DNA of 64,000 nt, from IMG/VR virus record IMGVR_UViG_3300007644_000002, positions 1 to 64,000 of that record; one strand, written 5' to 3'. The notes beneath the pieces were generated by a model. That model was not told the origin of the DNA. It ran no database searches and saw only the letters and a program-made list of their open reading frames with translations. Below, one piece after another: positions 10,511 to 62,837 of this stretch. Made by a program: the position numbers and the translations under genes. How positions within the stretch are numbered: the stretch's first letter is position 1; every line of letters begins with the position of its first letter. This DNA comes from a virus.

Positions 10511-11479
10511 TTAACCATTCCTATAAATGTATTCTAATGCTCGATCAGCCTCTACCAACAGAGGCCTACTAGCATACCAGTTTCCAGTATCGTTGTCGAA
10601 CTCACGAATTAGGTCTGCGAGTTGGGTGGCGGTGAGGGGATATCCTTTCGCATATGCGTTACCCGCAATTGACAACATAATGCTGTACATCTTACCATAC
10701 CACCCAGTGTCGCTAATTTGTTGATACTCCGCACCCAGTCTTCGAGGCCAGAACGGGCAGTCACGATATGATGACCATCTGAAGTCAGTATTATTTAGAC
10801 CGTCCTTACGATGTTGAATTACGGCAGATGCCAAGTGTGGAGGTAGTCTATCTAGAAAAGAATTACCAGTCTTCTCGTGATAAGGATGTTTAGCAATCAA
10901 CTCTGACACATTCAGAGCAGCTCCTTTATTCTCAAAGAAGAACGACCACGCGTTAGGATATACCGCAGGGATATAGTACATACGCGCAAGGTCTTTAGTC
11001 TGTGGGTCACCGATCTCACCCAGTTCAGTGTTGAGTGCGTACCAGAACGCTTTGATGCGCTCGGTCTCAACCGTCTCGTCTAATCGAAAGACAATGCGAA
11101 ACTTAGGATAGTTATCTACGTCTTTCGGATGAGTCGGCTCACGTGAACTTGCTGTATTGTAGACCACATAATCATACTGACCGAAGTCTTCACGTAATGC
11201 GTCTTCTAGGGCACTAAGAGAACCGGTAGGATAATTATGATCGTCCACATCAACACAGCACCAACCACCCCAACGTAGAGTATTGCGGTTAGCGCGAGTC
11301 GTGCCGTCCTCGAAAACAGCAGGAGTAATAAGAGCAGAACTGTTAGCACCACCTTTTTGTCCCTCTTTAGTCGAGAGTGCTTTCAGTAAACCAACGAAGG
11401 CATCCCAAGTATCAAAAGATTGCTTGCGATGAGTCTTGTTGTCGAACTGATTTTTAAATATAGTTAATTCGTAATTCAT
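10511..11479 (-). CDS. putative archaeo-eukaryotic primase (PrimPol-like) protein
   Basis: hhhDhD motif (CCVDVDD), YNTASS, KFRIVFRL, DPQTKDLARMYY; helical C-terminal domain. Confidence 0.65.
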   Translation of the reverse strand: MNYELTIFKNQFDNKTHRKQSFDTWDAFVGLLKALSTKEGQKGGANSSALITPAVFEDGTTRANRNTLRWGGWCCVDVDDHNYPTGSLSALEDALREDFGQYDYVVYNTASSREPTHPKDVDNYPKFRIVFRLDETVETERIKAFWYALNTELGEIGDPQTKDLARMYYIPAVYPNAWSFFFENKGAALNVSELIAKHPYHEKTGNSFLDRLPPHLASAVIQHRKDGLNNTDFRWSSYRDCPFWPRRLGAEYQQISDTGWYGKMYSIMLSIAGNAYAKGYPLTATQLADLIREFDNDTGNWYASRPLLVEADRALEYIYRNG

Positions 11480-11485
11480 GTGACC

Positions 11486-11514
11486 ATTATACCATAATAT
11501 AGAGTGCCTGTCAA
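11486..11514 (-). promoter_or_regulatory. sigma70-type promoter (leaderless) for the primase-like gene
   Basis: TTGACA, 17 bp, TATAAT, then GGTCAC-ATG. Confidence 0.8.
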
Positions 11515-14006
11515 CCGAAGAAATCCTCTAGTGACGACGGAGGTTCCGCGTCCCAACCAACCGCATCAAGAATGGGAGTAAGTGGGTCTAGGAAACTTTT
11601 AGTAAACATCAGGTCATAATCGATATGAGTATGTAGACGCAACTCTTTTGGCATATTAAGTGGGTATGATATAACATTCTGACCCAAGTAATTAGGAACT
11701 TTCAGATAAACGAACTTAATCTTCTCGCCCGTCTGGACTTCCTGATACTTCTGTGTCAGACCGTGAGTCTTCAATGCGGCATTGTAACACAACGCACCGC
11801 GCACATGAATCGGAGTACCTTTCTTGAAGATAGTCTTGCGGTCTACCCATTTGTTCAGGGCAGATATACCACGAGGGAATGAAATATCTTCGGGTGGTAA
11901 GGTTCTGAAATGGGACTTAAAGTCTCGAATGTACTGTTGTGTGTCTGATTCGGTACCTTCTACGATAACCCGAAAGATTTCCTTGAACTTGTCACGCACG
12001 ACCGAAGGTGTCGAAGACTTGATTGCCTCGATACCCATCATCTTGAGTTTAGGTTCTGCGTATTGGACACCCTCGTTGTTATGGACGTTCAGGATGTAAC
12101 GTTTCTTAGCCATCCAGATACCACGGTCAGCGATAACTTCACGTCCCATCTCCATACGATTACTATATGCGCCAGTAATCTTCGCCATCTCTGCGTAAGA
12201 TGTTTCCAGAACTTTCTCAAAGTGTTCGGAACAAATCTTGTCTAGGAATTTAACAGGGTCTTTAGGAGCAAACTTATCAACCAAGGCACCCATACGAATA
12301 TAAACAGAGTCGGTATCAATTGCCACAACGTAGTCTTCATCTGTTTTAAGGAGGTTTTGCATTTCATTGTTAACGGCTCTCTCTGCCCATTTGATTGCGA
12401 GTTGACCCGCAATAGTAATTGATTCCGCAACTCGCTGATCAAAATATCTAAAATAGCGATTCCCAAGGGCGCCATAAAGTGAATTCATAAGAATCTTGAT
12501 GGCGGCCTGTTTATTGTTCAGAGAGGTAATCTTATACTGGAGCGCCTTAGATGGATTATGTTGATACTCTTGTTGAAGTTCCAACATCTCTTTCTTGACT
12601 ACCCGACGTTCCGAATAGTATTGTTCGATGATTGAAGGAACAACACCTTTTCGGTCGTGCGAGAATCTAACACCAGTAGGCGCAATAGAATGACAGAGTT
12701 TAGAATAATCAAAGTCGTCACTATACATAGTACCGTCTAGTATTTTATCCACAGACATATTTGGAACAATACCATCCAAAACAGTCTCGGGGGACATGTT
12801 GTACTGTACAATGATGTTAGGATACAGAGAGTTCAAATCGAAAGAGGTTACCCAGTCGTGCGAACCGACTTGAGGTTCTTTCACGTAACCACCGGCAAAT
12901 GCGGACTTAGGTTTATCTGTCTTAGGTGGAACCACAATCTGTTTCGCGTTCAGCATACGATAGATGATGCTGTCCCAGATATTAGTAGTACCTAGGGTAT
13001 CACCGTAGTTGGCACCTGCCTTATATGCCATAGTCAGGATAAGGGAGATGAGGTCGAGTTTCTCGTCCAACGCATGAACGAGTTCAACATCCTTAATGTT
13101 ATAGTCGATGAACTTCTGGTAATCTTCTTTGTAGAGATTAAACAGGGTACCGTGTTCTTCGTAGTCGATTTTACGCTCACCGAGTTCGATAGTCGCGATG
13201 TGGTCGAGACGATACGATTCTTGTTGGGTATATGTGAACTTCTTGTAAACATCCAAGTAATCGAGATGCTCAATACCCTCAAGGATATATTCTTGAACCT
13301 TCTTACCGAAGTATTCCCGATTGCGCTCGCGGATGATACCCCAAGGCGATAGTTTAGAAAGTAGTGTTTCGTCACCAAATAGATTACGCGTACGGTTGAT
13401 GATGTACGGAATATCAAATCCCATAGTGTTCCAACCAGTAATTACGTCGGGAGTATGGCGACTCCAGTGGTCAATAAACTTACGCAACAAATCCATCTCG
13501 TTATCGCATTTGATATACAAGACATCTTTACGTGTGACCACATAGTCATTCAGACCCCACACCCAGTAGACACCGTCGTTCTTGCGTAACGTAATAGAGA
13601 TGACAGGATGTTCGGCCTTACTAGGTTCAGGGAACCCCGCGTCAGACGCAACCTCAATATCGAAGTTGGTGACTTCTACCGAAGAACGGTCGAACTCGAT
13701 ATCGGTCGGGAATTTTTTAGCGATGTACTGAAACACCATGTTATTCATACCGTACACATTGACGTTAGAAACGTCACGATACAGTTTATCAAACTCGGTC
13801 GCCTCAGACATAGAGTCGAAAGTCACGGGCGCGACATTCTGACCGTCTAGGGTTTTCCAAGGTGAGGTTTTGTCACTATTGACAAATAGAGTGGGTTTAA
13901 ACGCAATCTTTTTCTTGACGCGTTCGCCATTTTTGTATCCGCGATACAGCAAGTTATTGCCGCGACGGACAACTGAGGTATAGAATTCTTTAGTATTTTT
14001 TATCAT
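11511..14006 (-). CDS. 43: family B DNA polymerase gp43
   Basis: Exo motifs FDIEV, GWNTMGFDIPY, YNIKD; pol motifs SFDLNSLYP, KILMNSLYG, DTDS; no intein seen. Confidence 0.97.
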   Translation of the reverse strand: MIKNTKEFYTSVVRRGNNLLYRGYKNGERVKKKIAFKPTLFVNSDKTSPWKTLDGQNVAPVTFDSMSEATEFDKLYRDVSNVNVYGMNNMVFQYIAKKFPTDIEFDRSSVEVTNFDIEVASDAGFPEPSKAEHPVISITLRKNDGVYWVWGLNDYVVTRKDVLYIKCDNEMDLLRKFIDHWSRHTPDVITGWNTMGFDIPYIINRTRNLFGDETLLSKLSPWGIIRERNREYFGKKVQEYILEGIEHLDYLDVYKKFTYTQQESYRLDHIATIELGERKIDYEEHGTLFNLYKEDYQKFIDYNIKDVELVHALDEKLDLISLILTMAYKAGANYGDTLGTTNIWDSIIYRMLNAKQIVVPPKTDKPKSAFAGGYVKEPQVGSHDWVTSFDLNSLYPNIIVQYNMSPETVLDGIVPNMSVDKILDGTMYSDDFDYSKLCHSIAPTGVRFSHDRKGVVPSIIEQYYSERRVVKKEMLELQQEYQHNPSKALQYKITSLNNKQAAIKILMNSLYGALGNRYFRYFDQRVAESITIAGQLAIKWAERAVNNEMQNLLKTDEDYVVAIDTDSVYIRMGALVDKFAPKDPVKFLDKICSEHFEKVLETSYAEMAKITGAYSNRMEMGREVIADRGIWMAKKRYILNVHNNEGVQYAEPKLKMMGIEAIKSSTPSVVRDKFKEIFRVIVEGTESDTQQYIRDFKSHFRTLPPEDISFPRGISALNKWVDRKTIFKKGTPIHVRGALCYNAALKTHGLTQKYQEVQTGEKIKFVYLKVPNYLGQNVISYPLNMPKELRLHTHIDYDLMFTKSFLDPLTPILDAVGWDAEPPSSLEDFFG

Positions 14007-14012
14007 GTGGCC

Positions 14013-14041
14013 ATTATAGGTTAATATGAACGCTGTGTCAA
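14013..14041 (-). promoter_or_regulatory. sigma70-type promoter (leaderless) for gp43
   Basis: TTGACA(14041-14036), 17 bp, TATAAT(14018-14013), then GGCCAC-ATG. Confidence 0.8.
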
Positions 14042-14907
14042 GAGAAAAAATCGGAAAGGGTAGCAGTATTGTTCTGTTCGTACCAGTCTCTACAAATGTC
14101 CATCACTCGCTGACGACGTTTGTAATTAATCTCACCATTATCTATTAGTGTTTCAAATAACTTGTCTATCCCGCCACCTAGTTGTAGGTTGATGTGGGGT
14201 TTGACCTTACCAAGAACTTTTTCGATCTCAAACTCTTCTCGAATTATATTCTTCTGTTTTGGTTTGTTGAGTTCTTCCCACGAGAACTTCATAAAGAACT
14301 CGCGTACGCGTGGATCTAGATACGGAGTAACATGAACCTTACCATGTTTCTCTGCTAGATTAGTGTGTTGTTTTAGTCCTGCGCAGTCACCGTCGAGGTA
14401 GGCATTACGGAACTCATTCCAGTTGACTCTCTTCTGGTTGTTTTCTTTACAGTACTTGACATAGTTGCGCTTCTTTTTAAAAGAAGAGTATCTAATCATT
14501 GCTTTCTTAGAACACCCGAAGTATGCGTCAGCACCCCATCCAGTGATACAGTATTCTTCTGTCATGTTTTCATAACAATAGAGGAAGGGAAACACTGCGG
14601 CTTCGTAGTGGGATTTCTTGCGACAACCATGTTTGACTAGTCGGTGCCAGTCTTCAACTAGGTTATCAGTAGGGACAATAATAGTGGTGAACTCCCACCC
14701 CATGATTTCTGCGACTTCCTTTGCCTTCGCGTGGTCATAAGATGGTTGTCCTTCAAGATGGAAACTATACGCGTGTACAGTCTTCCCAGCATCCTGTGCA
14801 GCGATTGCCACACTGATACTGTCAACACCACCAGAAAGAAGTACCGCAACTTTATCATGCGGCACCTTTCCTGCTATGTGGTCAGAGAGAATTTCTCTAA
14901 TCATCAA
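14038..14907 (-). CDS. asparagine-synthetase-like ATP-dependent amide ligase (synthetase domain only)
   Basis: PP-loop VLLSGGVDS, TGWGADAYFG, TPYLD, KxxIR; no N-terminal Cys glutaminase domain. Confidence 0.75.
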   Translation of the reverse strand: MMIREILSDHIAGKVPHDKVAVLLSGGVDSISVAIAAQDAGKTVHAYSFHLEGQPSYDHAKAKEVAEIMGWEFTTIIVPTDNLVEDWHRLVKHGCRKKSHYEAAVFPFLYCYENMTEEYCITGWGADAYFGCSKKAMIRYSSFKKKRNYVKYCKENNQKRVNWNEFRNAYLDGDCAGLKQHTNLAEKHGKVHVTPYLDPRVREFFMKFSWEELNKPKQKNIIREEFEIEKVLGKVKPHINLQLGGGIDKLFETLIDNGEINYKRRQRVMDICRDWYEQNNTATLSDFFS

Positions 14908-15768
14908 TTACCCCATATGGCTCTTAATATAACTACCATTTAAAATATCCTTATCCCACTCACTCATAGGTCGTCTAGCAACATCTAGAAGTGTGCCCAT
15001 TCCCATTAAATCAGTACCCTGAACTCGACAATGATTAAACTTAGTATTAGGTTTGCGATAATCGTAGTGTTTCACAACAGGGAGACCATCAAGACTCATC
15101 AATAGGTCGGTACACGTATGACCATTCCATGTCTGGTCTAGATATTGAACAGTCGCATCATTCTTGAATAACATATATTGGATGTACGGCTGGTCTGTTA
15201 TATAATAACTCGCATCTATACCAGAATCCTGAATAACCTCAACATAGTCTTTAAGGTCGAACCACCCTTCCGTACGTGCGCGTATACGCATCTTCTTCGA
15301 ATATATCACAACACCACTGTTTAACGCAATAGGTAATTGCCCATCTATACTAGGAAACTCAACACCCAACTTAGTTCTCACCAAGTTATCCCATTCTATA
15401 AGTTCAATGCGTTTGTGGTCTGGCATAGGATTATCCAGTACCCACAATTCAGGTACCATACCAACATCCATATTCTCATTGAATGCGTCGAATATATTAT
15501 ATTGTAGTTTCTCTGCGGGAAATATATCTAAGTCAGCAAACAGAACTTTATCATATTCATCGAACATAGGGTCGAATATAGGTTTTAGTGCTGAAAAGAA
15601 GTAACCCTTATCACCTACCGAATAGTTAAAATGTTTTGATAAGAAGTCAGGGTTATGTTCAAATATGTAATGAACACCTATACGTCTAGCATACTCCTCC
15701 ATCATGCGACGACCCAACAAGATATCTGCTCTTAAATCACCATCCCAGTACTGGTAAATGACATTCAT
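14908..15768 (-). CDS. GT-A fold glycosyltransferase (GT8-like), paralog A
   Basis: VLFADLDI (DxD), LNSGVVIY, TDQPYIQY, WNGH. Confidence 0.7.
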   Translation of the reverse strand: MNVIYQYWDGDLRADILLGRRMMEEYARRIGVHYIFEHNPDFLSKHFNYSVGDKGYFFSALKPIFDPMFDEYDKVLFADLDIFPAEKLQYNIFDAFNENMDVGMVPELWVLDNPMPDHKRIELIEWDNLVRTKLGVEFPSIDGQLPIALNSGVVIYSKKMRIRARTEGWFDLKDYVEVIQDSGIDASYYITDQPYIQYMLFKNDATVQYLDQTWNGHTCTDLLMSLDGLPVVKHYDYRKPNTKFNHCRVQGTDLMGMGTLLDVARRPMSEWDKDILNGSYIKSHMG

Positions 15769-16655
15769 GTGGTAGAATCTTGGTTGATCTGAAACTTGCG
15801 GTATACCCCAGTTTTATTCAGACTAACATGATTGAAGTTAGACACATTACCATGTAATTGGATATTCGCGTGACCAAATTTAAGGAATCTATCGGACGCA
15901 ACACATAGACACTGGAACATGAAAGTTGCGCGACCAGAGTTACTCATAGACCACGACTGTTCTTTGAAGAACTCAAAGAAATCGGTAGTTAAAGCAAAAC
16001 TATCTTGTCCTAGAATTTCGTCTTTCAAGCAGTCTAGAAACTGAATCGCAGTGTCTTCTTCACCAATCTCCGACATGAGAGATGCCCAAGAAGCAAAGTT
16101 TCTTCGGTAGGGGGAATATTCTGAAACGCTATCAAAGAAATCGTCTATAATATCATTACCTCTCTTCACTATACCGGAATAACTTTTCCAATATTCAATG
16201 GCATTTGACATGTTAAGGGAAGGGAGACCCTTACGTTTTACCGCATCGCCCAGAGTAGTTATCTCACTAGCCTTTGCCTTTGGATACTTGCGTTGAATCT
16301 CATCACCGGCAGTACGCTTACGAGCTTCGGTTCCTTTGGTAAAGGTGTCAGGCATAACTCCCAGTATAACCGGAACTAATACCGTTATACCTAACTTTAT
16401 CACAGCGATCAATCTATGCTGGAACTCGGTTATGTTACCATCGGTGTTGAATGTTAAAGCACCACCATCCCACAACCAACCTTCTCTCTCAATATTCCTA
16501 ACAAGATTATTGACTTGATTCTTTTTAATAAGTCTATTATCATAGTTATGGTTGTCAAGAATGTATTGGGCGACTGTTGGAGTTAATAACAGCTGGGTAA
16601 CCCCTTTTGTTTCTGATTTGGGATCAAACCCCAATTTTTCTACTCTTAAAGTCAT
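15765..16655 (-). CDS. ParB/Srx-like N-terminal domain protein
   Basis: TPTVAQYIL..N..NR, then FNTDGNITEFQHRLIAV (variant of DGQHR). Confidence 0.6.
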   Translation of the reverse strand: MTLRVEKLGFDPKSETKGVTQLLLTPTVAQYILDNHNYDNRLIKKNQVNNLVRNIEREGWLWDGGALTFNTDGNITEFQHRLIAVIKLGITVLVPVILGVMPDTFTKGTEARKRTAGDEIQRKYPKAKASEITTLGDAVKRKGLPSLNMSNAIEYWKSYSGIVKRGNDIIDDFFDSVSEYSPYRRNFASWASLMSEIGEEDTAIQFLDCLKDEILGQDSFALTTDFFEFFKEQSWSMSNSGRATFMFQCLCVASDRFLKFGHANIQLHGNVSNFNHVSLNKTGVYRKFQINQDSTT

Positions 16656-16697
16656 ATTTCGAATCCTCTATTTTATGACGTTTATATAATAGTACTA

Positions 16698-17411
16698 TTA
16701 CTTTATCGCAATAGCACCCACAAACAGGTGATTCATCCAGAACGGTTGAATCTTTGTTGAATCAAAACCAACTGAGGTCAGTAGACTAGTCAGGTCATTC
16801 CAAGTCATCGGTTTCAACATAGTTCGGAGAATCTTCTCTTTCTCCATAATATCTTCATAGGTAAAGTGCTGTGCCTTGTACTCATAAAACGTAGAGGTCA
16901 TCATATCTTGGATACGTGAGTTCTCCGCATAAGTCTTCTCGGCAAAGATAAACGCACCACCTTCGTTGAGTCCGTCATAGATGTTCTGTAGTACTTTCTT
17001 TCTCCATAAAGGTTGCATAAACTGTAACGTAAAGATAGATGTCACAAGAGAACAGTTGGCGAAGTTGTGGTGGATGATGTTTTTGTTTTGAAAACAGACG
17101 TGATGACCACCTTCGTTAAGTCTTGTCTGTCGCGCAGTCATATCGTCTTGAAATACCGGAGCATACTCAACACCACAGTAATGTGCGTTAGGGGCAGTAG
17201 TATGATTCTGTTCAACCATTGCTTCGATAGTCTTACCTGTACTACATCCAATGTCAACGACCTTAGTATCGTTCTCTACAAAGTAACGTGATAGGTTTAC
17301 CACGTCATCATGGAGCGTGGAGTAGTGACGAATCGAAGCATCGATGTGATTATCGAAACCTTCTTCGCGGTGACCAAACGTAAAGTCTTTATACTTCTCT
17401 CTATCTTTCAT
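16698..17411 (-). CDS. CmoA-like (carboxy-SAM synthase family) SAM-dependent enzyme
   Basis: FDNHIDASIRHY, VVDIGCSTG, SIFTLQF, IYDGLNEGGAFIFAEK align by eye with E. coli CmoA blocks. Confidence 0.8.
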   Translation of the reverse strand: MKDREKYKDFTFGHREEGFDNHIDASIRHYSTLHDDVVNLSRYFVENDTKVVDIGCSTGKTIEAMVEQNHTTAPNAHYCGVEYAPVFQDDMTARQTRLNEGGHHVCFQNKNIIHHNFANCSLVTSIFTLQFMQPLWRKKVLQNIYDGLNEGGAFIFAEKTYAENSRIQDMMTSTFYEYKAQHFTYEDIMEKEKILRTMLKPMTWNDLTSLLTSVGFDSTKIQPFWMNHLFVGAIAIK

Positions 17412-18549
17412 TATACACCTTCAATACGTTCTCATAAACGCTCTCTGCGACTGCTTTCATCATTAGTGGAGGAACCATACGACCAACACGTTCTGCCTTC
17501 TGGTTCCACTTACCCGTGAGTTTAAAATCATCAGGAAGTGACATTATACGCTTTAATTCACCTAGTGTCAACTTTCTTGGTTCACTCCAGTGAAATGCGC
17601 CGGCAGTAGTGTCACCATTACCCATTGCGGTAAGAGTAGGAGCAGGAGCTTCGAGAGATACACGTTTAAGGTTGAAGTGATGTCCTTTAGGATGATAGTC
17701 ACCACCAGTCAAGACCTTATCAGGGAACCTTGGCATTAGAGATCCCGTGTCTTTCCAGTAGGCGGTTCTCTCGAACTTCTCGGTCAGGTATTTGACTTCT
17801 TCGTCATCATACTCCAAACCAAGGAGAGCATCCTTCAGTGGAATTGTGGTGTTAGATGGTGTAGGGAATAAGTGATTCATTGTCAAGAAATGTAGACCAA
17901 CCTTGTCAGCAACATCTTGTCTCACGGCAATGAAGATTACACGTGAACGAGTTTGCGATACACCATAGTAACGAGCATCTAGTACTTCCGACACAACCTC
18001 GTAACCAATATTCTCAAACTCATTTAGAATACGTGCGTAGTATTCCTTAGCCTCACCAATAGTAAGACCTTTAACGTTCTCCGCGATAATAACCTTGGGT
18101 TGAATATCGTTAGCAACACGAAGGAACTCGAAGAACAGGTCTTCAATATTCTCGACAATTTTACCATCAGAGTATTTTTTAGTTTGTCCCCATCCATCAG
18201 AATGTTTGCCATCCGATGAATGGGAAAGTTTCCCTGCGACAGAGAATGCTGAACACGGGGGTGACCCGTCAAGAATGTCCAGTTCACCTTTCTTGAGACC
18301 GACAAGGTCTAGAAAGTCTTGACCAGACAATTCTTTGATATCGTTGGGGACGATAGGAGTGGTAGGATAGTTATCTTTGTAGGTGTTACGTGCTTCTTCG
18401 ACAAACTCATTGATCGCGAGAATATCACCACCGGCAAGACGATAACCAGTGGATGAACCGCCACCACCCGCAAAGGTGGAGACTACGTTAAATTTCTTTT
18501 GAGATGCTGCGTCGTAAACATCTTGTAATGTATAGGGGGTGTAAGTCAT
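17401..18549 (-). CDS. DNA cytosine-C5 methyltransferase homolog, putative carboxymethyltransferase
   Basis: Motif I FAGGGG, IV GSPPCSAFS, VI ENV, VIII QTRSRVIF; motif X reads VGRMVPP rather than IGNAVPP. Confidence 0.9.
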   Translation of the reverse strand: MTYTPYTLQDVYDAASQKKFNVVSTFAGGGGSSTGYRLAGGDILAINEFVEEARNTYKDNYPTTPIVPNDIKELSGQDFLDLVGLKKGELDILDGSPPCSAFSVAGKLSHSSDGKHSDGWGQTKKYSDGKIVENIEDLFFEFLRVANDIQPKVIIAENVKGLTIGEAKEYYARILNEFENIGYEVVSEVLDARYYGVSQTRSRVIFIAVRQDVADKVGLHFLTMNHLFPTPSNTTIPLKDALLGLEYDDEEVKYLTEKFERTAYWKDTGSLMPRFPDKVLTGGDYHPKGHHFNLKRVSLEAPAPTLTAMGNGDTTAGAFHWSEPRKLTLGELKRIMSLPDDFKLTGKWNQKAERVGRMVPPLMMKAVAESVYENVLKVYNER

Positions 18550-18575
18550 AATATACCTTCAGTTGTATAAGTTGC

Positions 18576-18604
18576 ATTATACAGTATTTAGCGTAGTATG
18601 TCAA
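18576..18604 (-). promoter_or_regulatory. sigma70-type promoter P1 of the MTase operon
   Basis: TTGACA(18604-18599), 17 bp, TATAAT(18581-18576). Confidence 0.85.
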
Positions 18605-18643
18605 CTAGAATATAGCACATACAGTCATTCAATTCATGCTGAT

Positions 18644-18672
18644 ATTATACATGACTCTGAAGGGTTTGTCAA
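18644..18672 (-). promoter_or_regulatory. sigma70-type promoter P2 of the MTase operon
   Basis: TTGACA(18672-18667), 17 bp, TATAAT(18649-18644). Confidence 0.85.
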
Positions 18673-19469
18673 TCAATTATTGCGAAAAACTTGTGTCGTG
18701 TCCAAGGTTCATTAATATGAGTCTCATTATAACCGTGATGGTCTTGAGTAACTAACAACCTCTTAGAGATGACTTGAGTGGTAGGTGTAAGAATACCTTT
18801 ACCATTCTTGTCAAGCATATTGAACGGTTCGCCAATGTCGCGACAAAAGGTCAAAGTATCACACCCATGCCATGGATGTATAGCAGTATCAGATAACCCC
18901 AGATAGTTTACTTCAGGTAGTGCCAGATGAGACGTGGTGTACGTTCTAAACAATCTCTGTAGGGTACAGTACGGGCCGCAGTTGATTGGAAAATTATTAT
19001 TAACAAGAGTATGATTCGCCCAATGAGCAAACCGTCTATCTAGGGAATACATCCCCATAAACAAACCTATGTTGGCGTAAAGCATACTGTCCGACGCCTT
19101 CGCGAGAGATTTAAACACCTCGTATCGCTCAGGAATCAGATAGGTATCATGTTCTATAACCCAAAACTTCTCACCGGACTCTGCTTGTTGTCTCATGAGT
19201 TCCCAATGAGAACACATTCCTGCCTTCTCTGTAGGAGAGTGATCGTCCTTCGCGTTACCAGAATGTAGGTCGACTCCCATGAGACTAGCCTTCCAGTTGT
19301 AACGGTCTACATGTTCTTGAAACGTATCAGACTCAGGAGTGATAGCATCAAACACTTCTATACCATCAATAAACCCATCGTCAATAGCACATTGAAAAGA
19401 CTTCCGAGAAATCTCAGCATACTCTTCTGACCTTTCATTACCCTTGATTACTATCTGTCTTACTTTCAA
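18669..19469 (-). CDS. GT25-like glycosyltransferase
   Basis: FDAITP, SPTEKAGMCSHWELM, VIEHD resemble GT25 blocks. Confidence 0.6.
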   Translation of the reverse strand: MKVRQIVIKGNERSEEYAEISRKSFQCAIDDGFIDGIEVFDAITPESDTFQEHVDRYNWKASLMGVDLHSGNAKDDHSPTEKAGMCSHWELMRQQAESGEKFWVIEHDTYLIPERYEVFKSLAKASDSMLYANIGLFMGMYSLDRRFAHWANHTLVNNNFPINCGPYCTLQRLFRTYTTSHLALPEVNYLGLSDTAIHPWHGCDTLTFCRDIGEPFNMLDKNGKGILTPTTQVISKRLLVTQDHHGYNETHINEPWTRHKFFAIID

Positions 19470-20239
19470 GAAATTCTCCTTTTGATAAACTCTTCCTGAT
19501 TACCACTTCTTAACCTACAATGAACAAACTTAGTAGTTGGGGTTCTCATATCATTCCAGATTTCAGACACATTATTAAAAAGCTTCACGCTGTCTGTCCA
19601 TATATGACCATTCCAGTCCTGACTTAACAATTGTATGTCAGCATTATTCTTATGTAACATATACTGAAGATATGGTTGAGCGGTCAGAAAATATTCATCA
19701 GGCATTCTATTTTCAAAGTCATTTAACCTAGGTGCCTTATCAATCATCCACTCTACGTATTCAGGTAGGTCAAACCAGTTCCTCGCTTTCTCTCTGATTT
19801 GTTTTGAATACAACACGACTCCGCTGTTAAATGATACATCAACAACAGCAACTTCTTCCTTCCATTCTTTTAGTTTCTTTAGTTTAGTCGGAGGAATTCT
19901 ATCATGGAAGGTTTCTTCGACGACTCCGACTTCACCCGTGAGTTCATCAAATATATTATCAGTCAGTCCCTCGATAGGAAGAACATCAACGTCCGCGTAA
20001 AGAATTTTGTCGTATTGGTCAAACCGAGGGTCTAGTAAGGGTTTCAGTGAACCGAAGTACACGTCATTATTTTGGATACGATTACCAGTAGTGTATTGGT
20101 AATGTGTTTGTAAGAAATCGGTATTATGCTCGAACATGTATTCAACACCGACAGTCTTAGCATATTCTGTCATAAGATGAACGCCCGCTTCTACTTCAGG
20201 GGTGATATCACCATCGAAATATTGATATATAAGATTCAT
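19466..20239 (-). CDS. GT-A fold glycosyltransferase (GT8-like), paralog B
   Basis: ILYADVDV, FNSGVVLY, QPYLQY, WNGH; colinear with the 14908-15768 protein. Confidence 0.7.
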   Translation of the reverse strand: MNLIYQYFDGDITPEVEAGVHLMTEYAKTVGVEYMFEHNTDFLQTHYQYTTGNRIQNNDVYFGSLKPLLDPRFDQYDKILYADVDVLPIEGLTDNIFDELTGEVGVVEETFHDRIPPTKLKKLKEWKEEVAVVDVSFNSGVVLYSKQIREKARNWFDLPEYVEWMIDKAPRLNDFENRMPDEYFLTAQPYLQYMLHKNNADIQLLSQDWNGHIWTDSVKLFNNVSEIWNDMRTPTTKFVHCRLRSGNQEEFIKRRIS

Positions 20240-20257
20240 TCATCAGTTTCCATAATT

Positions 20258-20287
20258 AAAAAAAAGGGAGACATTGCTGTCCCCCTT
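20258..20287 (-). terminator. intrinsic terminator
   Basis: GGGGGACA-GCAA-TGTCTCCC stem followed by T8. Confidence 0.85.
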
Positions 20288-20293
20288 ATTTAG

Positions 20294-20401
20294 TTAAGCA
20301 AGTAAGGTTAGACAATACATAATGGTATAGCCACTAAGTACCGCAGCACAGATAACACCGATTTGGTCAATACGACTGTTATACGATTTTCTCTTTTGCA
20401 T
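20294..20401 (-). CDS. 35 aa small membrane peptide (not in ORF track)
   Basis: GAGGA SD; MQKRKSYNSRIDQIGVICAAVLSGYTIMYCLTLLA; ends just before the terminator. Confidence 0.5.
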   Translation of the reverse strand: MQKRKSYNSRIDQIGVICAAVLSGYTIMYCLTLLA

Positions 20402-26815: not shown

Positions 26816-27046
26816 TTATTTCTTAGCAGGTTTACTGCTGGATTCTTCGATAGCGGCAGCTGCGGCTGCTTGAGCAATACGCTCATACAACGCGACTACT
26901 TGAACACCTTGGTCACGTAGTTGACCGATAGTGGTGAGTTCTTCACCTTTAAAGGCACCACGGGTTACGATGGTATCAATAACTGCGATACACGAACGTG
27001 CTACGCGGTTTGCTAAATCATTAAGTTGTGCTTGTTCTGGGGTCAT
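26816..27046 (-). CDS. hypothetical protein
   Basis: 76 aa, coupled to the gp45 stop; IDTIVTRGAFKGEEL core. Confidence 0.7.
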   Translation of the reverse strand: MTPEQAQLNDLANRVARSCIAVIDTIVTRGAFKGEELTTIGQLRDQGVQVVALYERIAQAAAAAAIEESSSKPAKK

Positions 27047-27729
27047 TATTTTGCTCCTGTTGATGAATTTTCTACTGCAATAAAGTATTCGATTTCTGAT
27101 TGAAGAGACTTGAATTTAGAAATGAGACGATTGCTCACACCAACCTCGTAGTCTTCACCAATCAATTTAAGGTTATTCACACCAATAACATAATTAAACT
27201 CAGAACCTTCGGGGTACGTACCCTCTACGGTAATTGAGAATGAATTAGATGATTGGGATGTCTTGGACTTACCGTCGACGACGATCTCAATAGCACCATT
27301 ACTTGGTCGTATATTAATCTCTTCGTGACCTAGCGCTGAGGCGGCACGTTTGATTTTAGACAAAGTATCGTTAGTGAGAACGAACTTGACTTCAGCATCT
27401 GGCATCTGAATATCTTTCTTAGGTGCCGTCAGCATTTCTGGGTCGCAATAGAAATACTTGACTGAAGATAGTCCGCTTCCATCCCGTATAGAACAGTTCT
27501 TTTCATCGAACTCGATTCTTGGATTGTCTACAAGATTTAGTACTGACAAAAACTCAGACAAATCATAGATACCAAAGTCAGTCGGGAAAGACTCTTCTAT
27601 TACAGCAGTTACAACCAAGTTCTTCTTGATTGACATAGTTTTTAAAATGTTGCCTTTAGCGACAACGATGTTGGGGTTAATGTTTGCGAAGTTTCGCAAG
27701 ATGTCGATTGTTCTACTAGTTAATTCCAT
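27046..27729 (-). CDS. 45: sliding clamp gp45
   Basis: ILRNFANINPNI, FGIYDLSEFL; syntenic with 46/47. Confidence 0.93.
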   Translation of the reverse strand: MELTSRTIDILRNFANINPNIVVAKGNILKTMSIKKNLVVTAVIEESFPTDFGIYDLSEFLSVLNLVDNPRIEFDEKNCSIRDGSGLSSVKYFYCDPEMLTAPKKDIQMPDAEVKFVLTNDTLSKIKRAASALGHEEINIRPSNGAIEIVVDGKSKTSQSSNSFSITVEGTYPEGSEFNYVIGVNNLKLIGEDYEVGVSNRLISKFKSLQSEIEYFIAVENSSTGAK

Positions 27730-30683: not shown

Positions 30684-31289
30684 TTAATCAAAGAAATCTG
30701 AGAGGTCTGAGTCAACATGTACCGCACGTCGTTTACGCATTTTCTTTTCTTCTTTTGCGTAAATCTTAAACTCTTGATCCGCAGATTTGACGGTGTCAAT
30801 ACGCAGGCGCAGAGTGTCGACTAAAGTGGATGGGGAATCCATGACGGAACCACCATTGTAAGAATCATTGTTATTGCTATCAACGAATTGGTCTATACCC
30901 GCTTCGGATATGAACTTCATCTTAATATCTTGTTGCTTCTTCTCTTTTTGGATTCGTCGTAGAAACGCATACCAAGATATCTGAGTGAAGTATGCGAACG
31001 CGTTCGGTTTACCAGAACGAGTGGCAGCTTCAATATCATAGTTTTCAATTGCTTTAAGACAGTTCTCTACCGCATCCATTACCATTTCTTCACGGTAAGT
31101 GTAACGGACAAAGTTTGCTTTGTGTGATAGACCTTCTGATATGCGTAGGAAACATTTAGCAATGTAATCAGTGACCACCGGAATAGATTCACCCTTATCC
31201 TTGGCATATTTTACTTGCGTACAATAATCTACTACAGACTCAGAGAACTCTCTGTTATTGACGTAATGTGGTTTTTCTTTTGGTTTCAT
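30684..31289 (-). CDS. 55: late sigma factor gp55
   Basis: HYVNNREF, NFVRYTYREEMVMD, NAFAYFTQI, AFLRRIQKEKKQ. Confidence 0.95.
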   Translation of the reverse strand: MKPKEKPHYVNNREFSESVVDYCTQVKYAKDKGESIPVVTDYIAKCFLRISEGLSHKANFVRYTYREEMVMDAVENCLKAIENYDIEAATRSGKPNAFAYFTQISWYAFLRRIQKEKKQQDIKMKFISEAGIDQFVDSNNNDSYNGGSVMDSPSTLVDTLRLRIDTVKSADQEFKIYAKEEKKMRKRRAVHVDSDLSDFFD

Positions 31290-31814: not shown

Positions 31815-31843
31815 TTGACACGGCGTCGTTTATAGTGTATAAT
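31815..31843 (+). promoter_or_regulatory. consensus sigma70 promoter on the plus (antisense) strand
   Basis: TTGACA(31815-31820), 17 bp, TATAAT(31838-31843), A-rich UP-like tract upstream. Confidence 0.8.
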
Positions 31844-62126: not shown

Positions 62127-62837
62127 TTATTCAGCAGACGCAATGTCTTCCAATACTAGATCACGTAGAGCATCTGAACCATCAGTAGTATCAAATACAT
62201 AAGATACTGTACAACGCCAGTCAGTATCGGCAGCAGCTGCGTGATAAAGAAGGGTTTCTGGTTCACGGTAGTGTCCGAAGTATGCGGCTTTACAAGTCCA
62301 CACGCCGGGCTTGTCTTGGCAACGAACAACTTCCTTAGTTTCAGGATGAATGTAATCAAAGTAACCAGAACCATCTCCAGAATAAGAGAAGATTAGGTTG
62401 AAGCCCGGAGCGTTAGCATTATTGTGCCAAGAGATATATCCGCCTGGCGGGTATACTGCGCACAATGCGTTATGTTTAACTGATAAGAAGTTCATCATCC
62501 TATCATTCAACTCACCTAGGTGTCTAGTGAGGTCTCTTTTAAAGATAGGGTCAGCATCACCCTCAAACATTGAGTGAGCCCGTTCGGATAACTTGAAGTT
62601 ATATCCTACTAGTTGGTCAGGGAACCCTTCATGAGCAGTCTTCTGGTCAAGAATTTCGTTCATATATGGCGCGCCGACGTAGTAACTACGCTGGCGAATA
62701 TGTTCTGCTCCATTCAAGTGGCAGTTCTTTTCAAAACCAGCCCAAGTATGAAGTTTAGCATATTCCCCAAGTATCTCCAGAAGTTCTGGATTATTAACGT
62801 CGATATGCTTTAGATATTGGTCGTTTACCTGTGTCAT
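62127..62837 (-). CDS. 2OG-Fe(II)/DSBH oxygenase-like protein, paralog 3
   Basis: VYPPGGYISWHNN...LYHAA...RCTVSY. Confidence 0.6.
   Translation of the reverse strand: MTQVNDQYLKHIDVNNPELLEILGEYAKLHTWAGFEKNCHLNGAEHIRQRSYYVGAPYMNEILDQKTAHEGFPDQLVGYNFKLSERAHSMFEGDADPIFKRDLTRHLGELNDRMMNFLSVKHNALCAVYPPGGYISWHNNANAPGFNLIFSYSGDGSGYFDYIHPETKEVVRCQDKPGVWTCKAAYFGHYREPETLLYHAAAADTDWRCTVSYVFDTTDGSDALRDLVLEDIASAE

Follow-up and report, generated by a model that had tools for sequence, protein, structure and literature searches.

The window analyzed here, a 64-kb stretch covering positions 1-64,000 of the 82.7-kb viral contig IMGVR_UViG_3300007644_000002 from IMG/VR (46% complete), carries five co-oriented minus-strand genes at 14038-18549 that we read, with a probability of roughly 85%, as a module of the published CmoA-CmoX-CmoY kind, expressed early and hypermodifying DNA after replication, in a variable slot beside the DNA polymerase gene (PolB) of a marine T4-like phage. 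In the proposed pathway, CmoA would convert S-adenosylmethionine (SAM) and prephenate to carboxy-SAM (Cx-SAM), and CmoX would transfer the carboxymethyl group to C5 of cytosine in DNA, with Cys99 as the catalytic residue and Arg357 holding the cofactor carboxylate. CmoY would then turn 5-carboxymethylcytosine (5cxmC) into an amide, with glycine as the amine by homology. A ParB/Srx-like protein would assist the DNA-acting enzymes, probably CmoX, and CmoY would be tethered to the gp45 sliding clamp through its C-terminal tail. The block had been proposed from sequence alone as a Cx-SAM-dependent operon with limits that agree exactly with the list of open reading frames (ORFs), and the comparable cyanophage core mentioned at that time proved to be the CmoA-CmoX-CmoY system of Synechococcus phage S-B43 (Yang et al., Nat Commun 2025; PMC12783734). 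Because the three core genes encode close orthologues of the S-B43 enzymes, the core is already known rather than new; the new part appears to be a clamp-type tail common to CmoY, PolB, gp55, and unrelated modification enzymes. Orthology, catalytic and cofactor motifs, gene order, and promoters were read from sequence and structure comparison, from which the chemistry, target motif, and amine are extrapolated.

Core enzymes of the Cmo module

The activities of the S-B43 enzymes were established by liquid chromatography-mass spectrometry, a delta-cmoA control, a crystal structure, and native phage DNA (PMC12783734). SpCmoA makes Cx-SAM; SpCmoX, a homologue of C5-cytosine methyltransferases (C5-MTases), forms 5cxmC at GC sites; and SpCmoY ligates glycine to the 5cxmC carboxylate, with native S-B43 DNA carrying the glycine amide (PMC12783734). 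All three orthologues are clustered in the window, as in S-B43 within a T4-like phage, and share with their counterparts the SPPC motif, an Arg at the position equivalent to 350, and a PP-loop ligase lacking a glutaminase domain. This close orthology of CmoX and CmoA to characterized enzymes upholds the proposed route from Cx-SAM to 5-carboxymethylcytosine.

CmoX (382 amino acids [aa]; 17401..18549, minus strand), predicted as a C5-MTase homologue and recognized as such by PF00145 (1.5e-53), was approximately 70% identical to SpCmoX and matched the structure of SpCmoX with Cx-SAM (PDB 8YF3) over residues 4-377 (E, 3.4e-154). The SPPC motif at residues 96-99 aligned with SpCmoX S95-C98. Arg357 (codon 17479-17481), within GRMVPP, aligned with SpCmoX R350 and with the Asn of the HaeIII GNAVP motif; the same position corresponds to HhaI N304 and is the Cx-SAM carboxylate-binding position in SpCmoX. 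Arg350 of SpCmoX touches the cofactor carboxylate, and the wild-type enzyme used Cx-SAM only, whereas the R350N mutant was dead and took neither cofactor (PMC12783734). In an alignment of 19 CmoX homologues, drawn from 19 of the 80 IMG/VR loci described below, S96, P97, P98, C99, E157, N158, V159, and R357 were invariant. The engineered M.MpeI N374K enzyme, as cited in PMC12783734, offers a parallel in that placing a basic side chain where motif X normally has Asn permits Cx-SAM use; that enzyme is engineered, carries Lys, and targets CG, whereas the CmoX described here is natural, carries Arg, and probably targets the GC dinucleotide by analogy with SpCmoX.

CmoA (237 aa; 16698..17411, minus strand) overlaps CmoX by the 11 nucleotides (nt) originally noted (17401-17411). 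Its assignment as CmoA-like agreed with a TIGR00740 match at 1.1e-29, it was 52% identical to SpCmoA (E, 6e-80), and its PDB matches were limited to CmoA structures (4GEK, 1IM8, and 4IWN). Two pocket positions at which it departs from E. coli CmoA show the same differences in SpCmoA. A chorismate mutase (PF01817), through which the phage might supply prephenate, was not found in the 82.7-kb contig.

CmoY (288-289 aa; 14038..14907, minus strand), a putative ATP-dependent 5cxmC amide ligase described earlier as Asn-synthetase-like, matched PF00733 (6e-17) from residue 19 onward, with a PP-loop (SGGVDS) at residues 25-30, and no glutaminase domain was present in its 289 aa. It shared 46% identity with SpCmoY at a pairwise E value of 7e-81, against a network threshold of 1e-56 in the S-B43 study (PMC12783734), a comparison that is approximate as pairwise and database E values lie on different scales. 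The residues invariant over 26 aligned CmoY sequences were also present in SpCmoY. Conversion of 5cxmC to an amide by the ligase, part of the original prediction, thus stands by orthology to SpCmoY, whereas plain amidation (+57 Da) is less likely: the lack of a glutaminase domain and the 46% identity to SpCmoY make glycine or another amino-acid amide likelier than a plain carboxamide. The CmoY product is more likely an amino-acid amide, tentatively that of glycine by homology.

Co-occurrence of the core genes was apparent among related loci. CmoX relatives were collected from IMG/VR (391 confirmed, 80 kept; loci designated by L numbers), and their neighbors were mapped by tblastn, leaving out matches covering less than 40% of the query, as was also done for the glycosyltransferase (GT) loci below; one homologue collection left out matches covering less than 85%, duplicates, and loci L003 and L004. 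CmoA adjoined CmoX in 75 of the 80 loci, three of the five misses being truncated within 500 nt, and CmoY was present in 39. Compared with S-B43, the module differs in its gene order, X-A-[ParB-like]-[GT]-Y instead of X-Y-A, in a basic insert and a PolB/gp55-like tail in CmoY that SpCmoY lacks, in an accessory protein without a PF02195 match, and in its distant backbone (PolB 46-47% identical to cyanophage PolB; no psbA in the nearest complete genome). A ParB-type neighbor is, by comparison, a known recurrent feature of CmoX loci (PMC12783734).

Early expression is suggested by the positions of perfect TTGACA-N17-TATAAT promoters, of which the window holds 11 against 0.03 expected. They span 284-31843, and 10 of them lie on the coding (minus) strand before early or replication genes, the remaining one lying on the plus strand (31815-31843). 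Two tandem early-type copies (18644-18672 and 18576-18604, minus strand) precede cmoX, and a third lies within the cmoX 3' end ahead of cmoA (17543..17571, minus strand) and is the probable promoter of cmoA, the ParB-like gene, GTa, and cmoY. The ParB-like gene and GTa overlap by 4 nt, and GTa and cmoY are spaced by 0 nt, or by 3 nt if cmoY starts at the ATG at 14904, the start used by relatives. The five genes had been described as running into gp43. The gp43-like family B polymerase gene does follow (11511..14006, minus strand; phrog_262 and PF00136), but it has its own perfect sigma70-type promoter (14013..14041, minus strand), whose -35 hexamer includes the cmoY stop codon. Given these promoter positions, PolB is not simply read through from the module, and the module itself would be transcribed from early host-sigma70-type promoters.

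A modification hotspot beside the polymerase gene

Related genomes share a conserved backbone order, p179-Hsp20-(GT)-266-aa protein-[variable slot]-PolB-primase, in which the Cmo module occupies the slot. The slot is empty in Phage C48C1 and in L094/L095, where the 266-aa gene abuts PolB. Elsewhere, a D12 Dam-like methyltransferase (L092, L100, and L102), a DruA-like protein (L085), or a Methyltransf_24 protein (L019) lies in or next to it, and a Mom-family protein lies between PolB and primase (L026 and L033). Because relatives hold other genes there, the Cmo module is one of several cassettes in a polymerase-side modification hotspot, and the intervals between the 266-aa gene and PolB and between PolB and primase together make up a hypervariable DNA-modification hotspot in this phage clade. 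The arrangement was seen at 11400-20300 of the window and in L001, L026, L033, L085, L092, L094, L102, L132, and L135. Pfam scans of relatives covered hand-picked ORFs; among these, a by-eye "ParB-like" label for 10 slot ORFs was dropped, as Pfam recognized none of the 10 as ParB. Six had no significant Pfam match, and the others matched Methyltransf_24, D12 MTase, a DruA-like family, and, below threshold, DUF2664.

A close relative illustrates the turnover of this region. L016, whose PolB region is 97% identical to that of the window at the DNA level, has CmoX and CmoA and lacks the stretch corresponding to window positions 16675-14060, that is, 2616 bp comprising the ParB-like gene, GTa, and cmoY. 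It retains the last 22 nt of cmoY before the PolB promoter, and this remnant points to a deletion in the L016 lineage. The cmoA-cmoY interval is itself variable, with a 330-aa ORF or a 456-466-aa ORF replacing the ParB-like gene and GT in relatives; no Pfam matches were obtained for these ORFs (L010:3540-4535, L031:11997-12989, L019:4123-5523, and L081:9622-10992). Flanking repeats that would mark a mobile cassette were not found beyond chance-level pairs of 16-30 nt, the promoters being the sole shared elements.

The backbone places the module far from the characterized cyanophage. PolB was 69.8% identical to that of Phage C48C1, a complete genome, and at most 47.7% identical to those of cyanophages. 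A blastn search with the module returned six Synechococcus phage records only, at 16-27% coverage. Neither psbA, for which S-B43 was positive in the same search, nor CmoX was found in C48C1, the nearest complete genome. The lack of psbA in C48C1 makes a non-cyanobacterial marine host plausible, as originally supposed.

Strong palindrome avoidance was observed over the whole 82.7-kb contig, with observed/expected ratios of 0.16 for TGCA (60 versus 370), 0.40 for GATC, 0.61 for AGCT, and 0.64 for CATG. As TGCA and AGCT contain GC, the target of SpCmoX, avoidance and modification may be layered defenses.

A probable ParB/Srx-like accessory protein

The 296-aa protein encoded between cmoA and GTa (15765..16655, minus strand) belongs to phrog_5931, a family of unknown function, and its earlier description as ParB-like was moderately supported by fold similarity and not by sequence families. 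No Pfam match was obtained at E ≤ 0.01, PF02195 (ParB_N) gave no match at E ≤ 1 over the whole contig, and a 25-homologue profile searched against PDB sequences reached a best E value of 0.46. An AlphaFold2 model built from the window protein and 24 of 48 homologues had a predicted local distance difference test (pLDDT) score of 87.4 and suggested a ParB/Srx-like domain at approximately residues 16-110, followed by a helical C-terminal half. Among the top 15 Foldseek rows, 13 were ParB-N, Noc, PadC, or ParB (E, 0.045-0.57, under the confidence level of the tool). A second structure aligner matched residues 16-110 with sulfiredoxin (Z, 6.1; root mean square deviation, 4.5; 84 aligned), SerK (5.3), PadC (4.8), and KorB (4.0), likewise under the tool's confidence level. 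An E77-x-Q79-H80-R81 motif was invariant in the family, whose homologues come from marine metagenomes, Tara included.

The family was present in 7 of the 80 CmoX loci, five of which lack CmoY (L017, L018, L033, L035, and L072). As it co-occurs with CmoX-CmoA without CmoY, its partner is likelier CmoX or DNA, and the likeliest role for the protein is that of a helper or activator of DNA-acting enzymes, probably CmoX. Two precedents place a ParB/Srx-superfamily protein beside a post-replicative base modifier: DpdB, a ParB-like ATPase required for DpdA (PMC10164549), and ParB176, which activates the phage thymine dioxygenase 5mYOX176 on double-stranded DNA (PMC13229309). Both were needed for the activity of their partners on double-stranded DNA (PMC10164549, PMC13229309); the protein in the window differs in having no detectable ParB_N sequence homology and a modest fold match, and its partner would be a C5-MTase homologue. 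The ParB association had been expected to form part of the novelty, which does not hold, as 1660 ParBc sequences are already reported in the contigs of 5615 CmoX candidates (PMC12783734). Having no PF02195 match, the present protein is not countable by the PF02195 criterion of that study.

Glycosyltransferases inside and outside the module

GTa (286 aa; 14908..15768, minus strand) had no Pfam or PHROG match, and its prediction as a GT-A glycosyltransferase was substantiated by the predicted structure. The model and alignment were built from 13 sequences, namely, GTa, GTb, and 11 of 12 homologues (P0001 being the window's own protein). The AlphaFold2 model (pLDDT, 92.3) matched LARGE1 (3.9e-8), XXYLT1 (8.8e-8), and LgtC (3.5e-7) in Foldseek, each with a probability of 1.00, and further matched UGGT and PBCV-1 A64R, with E values overall from 4e-8 to 1e-6. 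D79-x-D81 (the DxD motif), N150, G152, and H246 were invariant in the family, which is GT8-like. GTa was 41% identical to GTb, a GT8-like protein encoded outside the Cmo module (19466..20239, minus strand), which scored 17.8 bits against the PF01501 cut-off of 24.3 bits, while a distant family member in L005 passed with 25.7 bits. Next to GTb, and likewise outside the module, lies the gene for the 266-aa GT25-like protein (18669..19469, minus strand), which the Atlas placed near GT25-bearing clusters, a lead only.

The distribution of the family speaks against the suggestion that the GT decorates the modified base. GT relatives (222 confirmed with the alignment query, 80 kept) were counted in 78 loci (L005 and L084-L160), with the window copies L003 and L004 set aside, and this count includes L098, L125, and L126, which duplicate the contigs of L016, L035, and L033. 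CmoX lay within 10 kb in 6 of the 78 loci and was missing within that distance from the other 72, and it was found in none of five large GT-bearing contigs (36-85% complete). In many loci, the GT stands beside a GT25-like gene with a Dam-like, a Mom-like, or no modification gene nearby, and the GTb-GT25-like pair is conserved, many relatives having it in the absence of Cmo genes. Conversely, just 2 of the 80 CmoX loci (L003 and L004) had a GT within the cluster, and both are copies of the window (99-100%) that come from two further samples. Phage C48C1 encodes a GT with 29% identity and lacks CmoX, and the nearest non-self GTa homologue (46%) lies amid ribonucleotide reductase (RNR), segE, denV, and PhoH genes. 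CmoY genes 90-92% identical to that of the window occur without a GT (L010, L030, and L031). With the family mostly found without CmoX and the in-cluster copy limited to this lineage, there is no support for the GT acting on the base. GTa most likely represents a paralogue, confined to this lineage, of a separate GT8+GT25 pair and does not act on the base; in the cluster it is probably a lineage-specific passenger.

The fold itself is no argument against a DNA acceptor, since phage GT-A enzymes with GT8-like and A64R-like predicted folds glycosylate DNA bases in C5-MT/5mYOX pathways, according to a preprint (bioRxiv 10.1101/2023.12.21.572611). The enzymes that glycosylate 5-hydroxymethylcytosine (5hmC) share with GTa the GT-A fold, the GT8/A64R-like structural neighbors, and a C5-MTase homologue nearby. 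The differences are that their hydroxyl group comes from 5mYOX or a thymidylate synthase (ThyS)-type enzyme, and that the GTa family occurs mostly without any cytosine-modifying gene. Action of the GT through a hydroxymethyl route was considered and dropped, as the 82.7-kb contig contained neither a thymidylate-synthase/dCMP-hydroxymethylase gene (PF00303) nor a Tet_JBP gene (PF12851, none at E ≤ 1), although a fragment that is 46% complete cannot prove absence.

Two further GT-related arrangements were observed. A PhyH-family 2-oxoglutarate-Fe(II) dioxygenase gene (PF05721 at 6e-21) lies between GT8-like and GT25-like genes in L015:1647-2357 and L033:8421-9143, which suggests that hydroxylation and glycosylation form a separate module there. 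In the window, three overlapping genes at 62127-64011 lie just downstream of the gene for a 1675-aa repeat protein (64137-69164); the second of the three gives a weak GT2 match (E, 0.0054), and a 236-aa gene (62127-62837) has no Pfam match.

Alternatives to the proposed pathway

Several observations weigh against the pathway as outlined above. CmoA scored 103.8 bits, below the TIGR00740 equivalog cut-off of 193.3 bits; the biochemically validated SpCmoA, used as a control, scored 115.6 bits and likewise fell short, so the cut-off marks bacterial CmoA and not the phage clade. CmoY shares only 46% identity with the glycine ligase SpCmoY and has a basic insert of approximately 16 aa that is not in SpCmoY and is common to a subclade. 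The ParB/Srx fold match is modest (Z ≤ 6.1; Foldseek E ≥ 0.045) and comes without a PF02195 match, and the translational coupling of the ParB-like gene, GTa, and cmoY, together with their loss or gain as one 2616-bp indel, leaves some room for a functional link of GTa.

The most radical alternative, that CmoX is an ordinary 5-methylcytosine methyltransferase beside unrelated metabolic genes and that no carboxymethylation takes place, is highly improbable. CmoX does have a complete PF00145 domain with the full set of catalytic motifs, but Arg takes the place of Asn in motif X exactly as in SpCmoX, an enzyme that used Cx-SAM alone and whose R350N form accepted neither cofactor (PMC12783734), and both the identity of about 70% between the two proteins and the adjacency of CmoA in nearly all CmoX loci (75/80) argue against it. 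It is considerably less far-fetched, though still somewhat unlikely, that the same pathway has a different end product, the CmoY subclade ligating a non-glycine amine, for instance a polyamine or a different amino acid. The moderate identity and the basic insert would fit this, as would the report that other ligase clusters have distinct active-site residues and unknown amines (PMC12783734), whereas the residues invariant over the 26 CmoY sequences are those of SpCmoY. Quite unlikely, finally, is a pathway in which CmoY attaches a hydroxyl amine (e.g., serine, threonine, or ethanolamine) to which GTa adds a sugar, giving a glyco-aminoacyl-carboxymethylcytosine. The coupled position of GTa between the ParB-like gene and cmoY, the shared indel, the insert of CmoY relative to SpCmoY, and the base-glycosylating phage GT-A enzymes of similar fold (bioRxiv 10.1101/2023.12.21.572611) would favor it. 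The locus counts argue the other way: in-cluster GTs are confined to copies of the window, closely related CmoY genes sit in GT-less clusters, 72 of 78 GT loci lack CmoX within 10 kb, none of the five large, incomplete GT contigs has it, many GTs accompany a GT25-like gene in other modification contexts, and the closest non-self homologue stands among RNR, segE, denV, and PhoH. The lack of ThyS-like and Tet_JBP genes in the incomplete contig points in the same direction.

A candidate clamp-type C-terminal tail on CmoY

CmoY ends in TLSDFFS-COOH (14041..14061, minus strand), a candidate sliding-clamp-binding epitope that resembles the ends of two other proteins encoded in the window, PolB (SLEDFFG) and the gp55-type late sigma factor (DLSDFFD; 30684..31289, minus strand; phrog_234 at 2.6e-49). 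The window also encodes a gp45-type sliding clamp (27046..27729, minus strand; PF09116 gp45-slide_C at 3.4e-13) that is 66% identical to the C48C1 processivity factor. The cmoY remnant in L016 had first pointed to the CmoY C-terminus. Among 219 six-frame ORFs of at least 60 aa in the 82.7-kb contig, L[SE][DE]FF occurred three times, each at the extreme C-terminus, in PolB, gp55, and CmoY; composition alone would give approximately 0.07 occurrences anywhere and 0.0005 at the C-terminal position. In T4, the C-termini of gp43, gp55, and gp33 bind the gp45 clamp and are interchangeable (PMC2988020). The tail here is likewise a short acidic-hydrophobic C-terminal peptide after a polar linker, shared by the PolB and gp55 of the phage; it differs from the T4 epitopes in its carriers, here a base-modifying amide ligase, elsewhere the Dam-like and Mom-like enzymes of sister phages. 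These features suggest that CmoY probably docks on the gp45 sliding clamp via its PolB/gp55-like tail.

The tail extends to unrelated families. Across 161 loci, a broader pattern (L[SEDQ][DEGQNAS][FY][FMILY]x) was found at the end of 107 of 2994 ORFs of at least 100 aa; L098, L125, and L126 are again contigs of L016, L035, and L033, so that a few contigs are counted twice. The 107 ORFs comprised 53 PolB, 26 CmoY, 1 primase, and 27 others, the last group consisting of 10 D12 methyltransferases, 6 Mom-family proteins (PF25680 at 1e-55), 7 gp55 homologues, 3 copies of a 148-aa ORF overlapping the PolB end, and 1 PD-(D/E)XK protein. None of the scanned CmoX, CmoA, GT, or ParB-like ORFs carried it. 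The Mom-family and D12 MTase tails of sister phages (...SLEEFFG, ...SLEQFFS, ...TLEDFFG, and ...TLDGFFS) are of the PolB tail type of the same loci (L026:11795-12604, L033:16129-16947, L092:5389-6270, L102:3521-4405, and L001:14513-15397). In a comparison that left out matches ending more than 40 residues short of the query C-terminus, 19 of 26 distinct CmoY sequences had the tail. The S-B43 PolB ORF (760 aa, matching to residue 754 of 831) and its gp55-like ORF had no tail at their ends. The 148-aa ORF lies over the PolB 3' end (L015:7601-8047 and L016:11050-11496), ends in a second PolB-type tail (...AEPVASLEDFFG), and has a weak SinI-like match (E, 0.0011); it may represent an endonuclease insertion that duplicated the C-terminal coding end of the polymerase.

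The presence of the tail on CmoY, Dam-like, and Mom-like enzymes suggests clamp-tethered DNA modification. In the fuller form of this proposal, which we advance tentatively and at slightly less than even odds, at least three unrelated modification families (CmoY, D12 Dam-like, and Mom) carry the clamp tail and ride gp45, the PolB-side slot swaps such cassettes, and the ParB/Srx-like protein helps the tail-less CmoX. Two points count against clamp docking of CmoY: the tail pattern was defined post hoc, after the tail had been seen, and 7 of the 26 distinct CmoY sequences, SpCmoY included, lack the tail. A possible, if less favored, explanation is that the CmoY/PolB/gp55 tail is no clamp epitope but, for instance, reflects the overlapping PolB promoter or serves as a signal to a different partner. 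In the window, the tail codons immediately precede, and run into, the -35 element of the PolB promoter, SpCmoY and six other distinct CmoY sequences do without the tail, and a recent preprint reports that T4 glucosyltransferases showed no gp45 binding, disputing an older report that T4 alpha-glucosyltransferase binds gp45 (bioRxiv 10.64898/2025.12.06.692756). The tail is kept, however, in CmoY genes that lie upstream of cmoX and not of PolB (e.g., L007, L050, and L061), which argues against an origin as a side effect of the PolB promoter. Its restriction to CmoY within the module, its presence on unrelated DNA enzymes (D12 MTase and Mom), and the place of PolB and gp55, together with gp33, in the classical trio of tailed clamp clients of T4 (PMC2988020) also favor clamp docking. 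Literature searches on this idea returned no report of clamp-type tails on phage DNA-modifying enzymes, and the terms clamp, C-terminal, gp45, replication, and processivity do not occur in the CmoX paper (PMC12783734).

Implications

The core finding is confirmatory, the pathway, a form of DNA camouflage, having been published in December 2025. It extends the Cmo system, its cofactor-defining residues complete, to a T4-like lineage only distantly related to the characterized cyanophage. There, the genes act as an exchangeable cassette within the modification hotspot next to PolB. Of potentially greater consequence than the core pathway is the clamp-type tail, found on CmoY as well as on modification enzymes of unrelated families. 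If clamp docking is correct, base hypermodification would be tied physically to replication, or to clamps that stay behind on DNA, a viral counterpart of DNMT1-PCNA. Replisome coupling of phage DNA modification has been proposed for T4 alpha-glucosyltransferase and recently contested, and the explicit copy of a polymerase tail described here offers a clean test of it. A clamp-tethered ligase together with a ParB-type helper could explain near-complete genome-wide modification, a property of interest for tool building.

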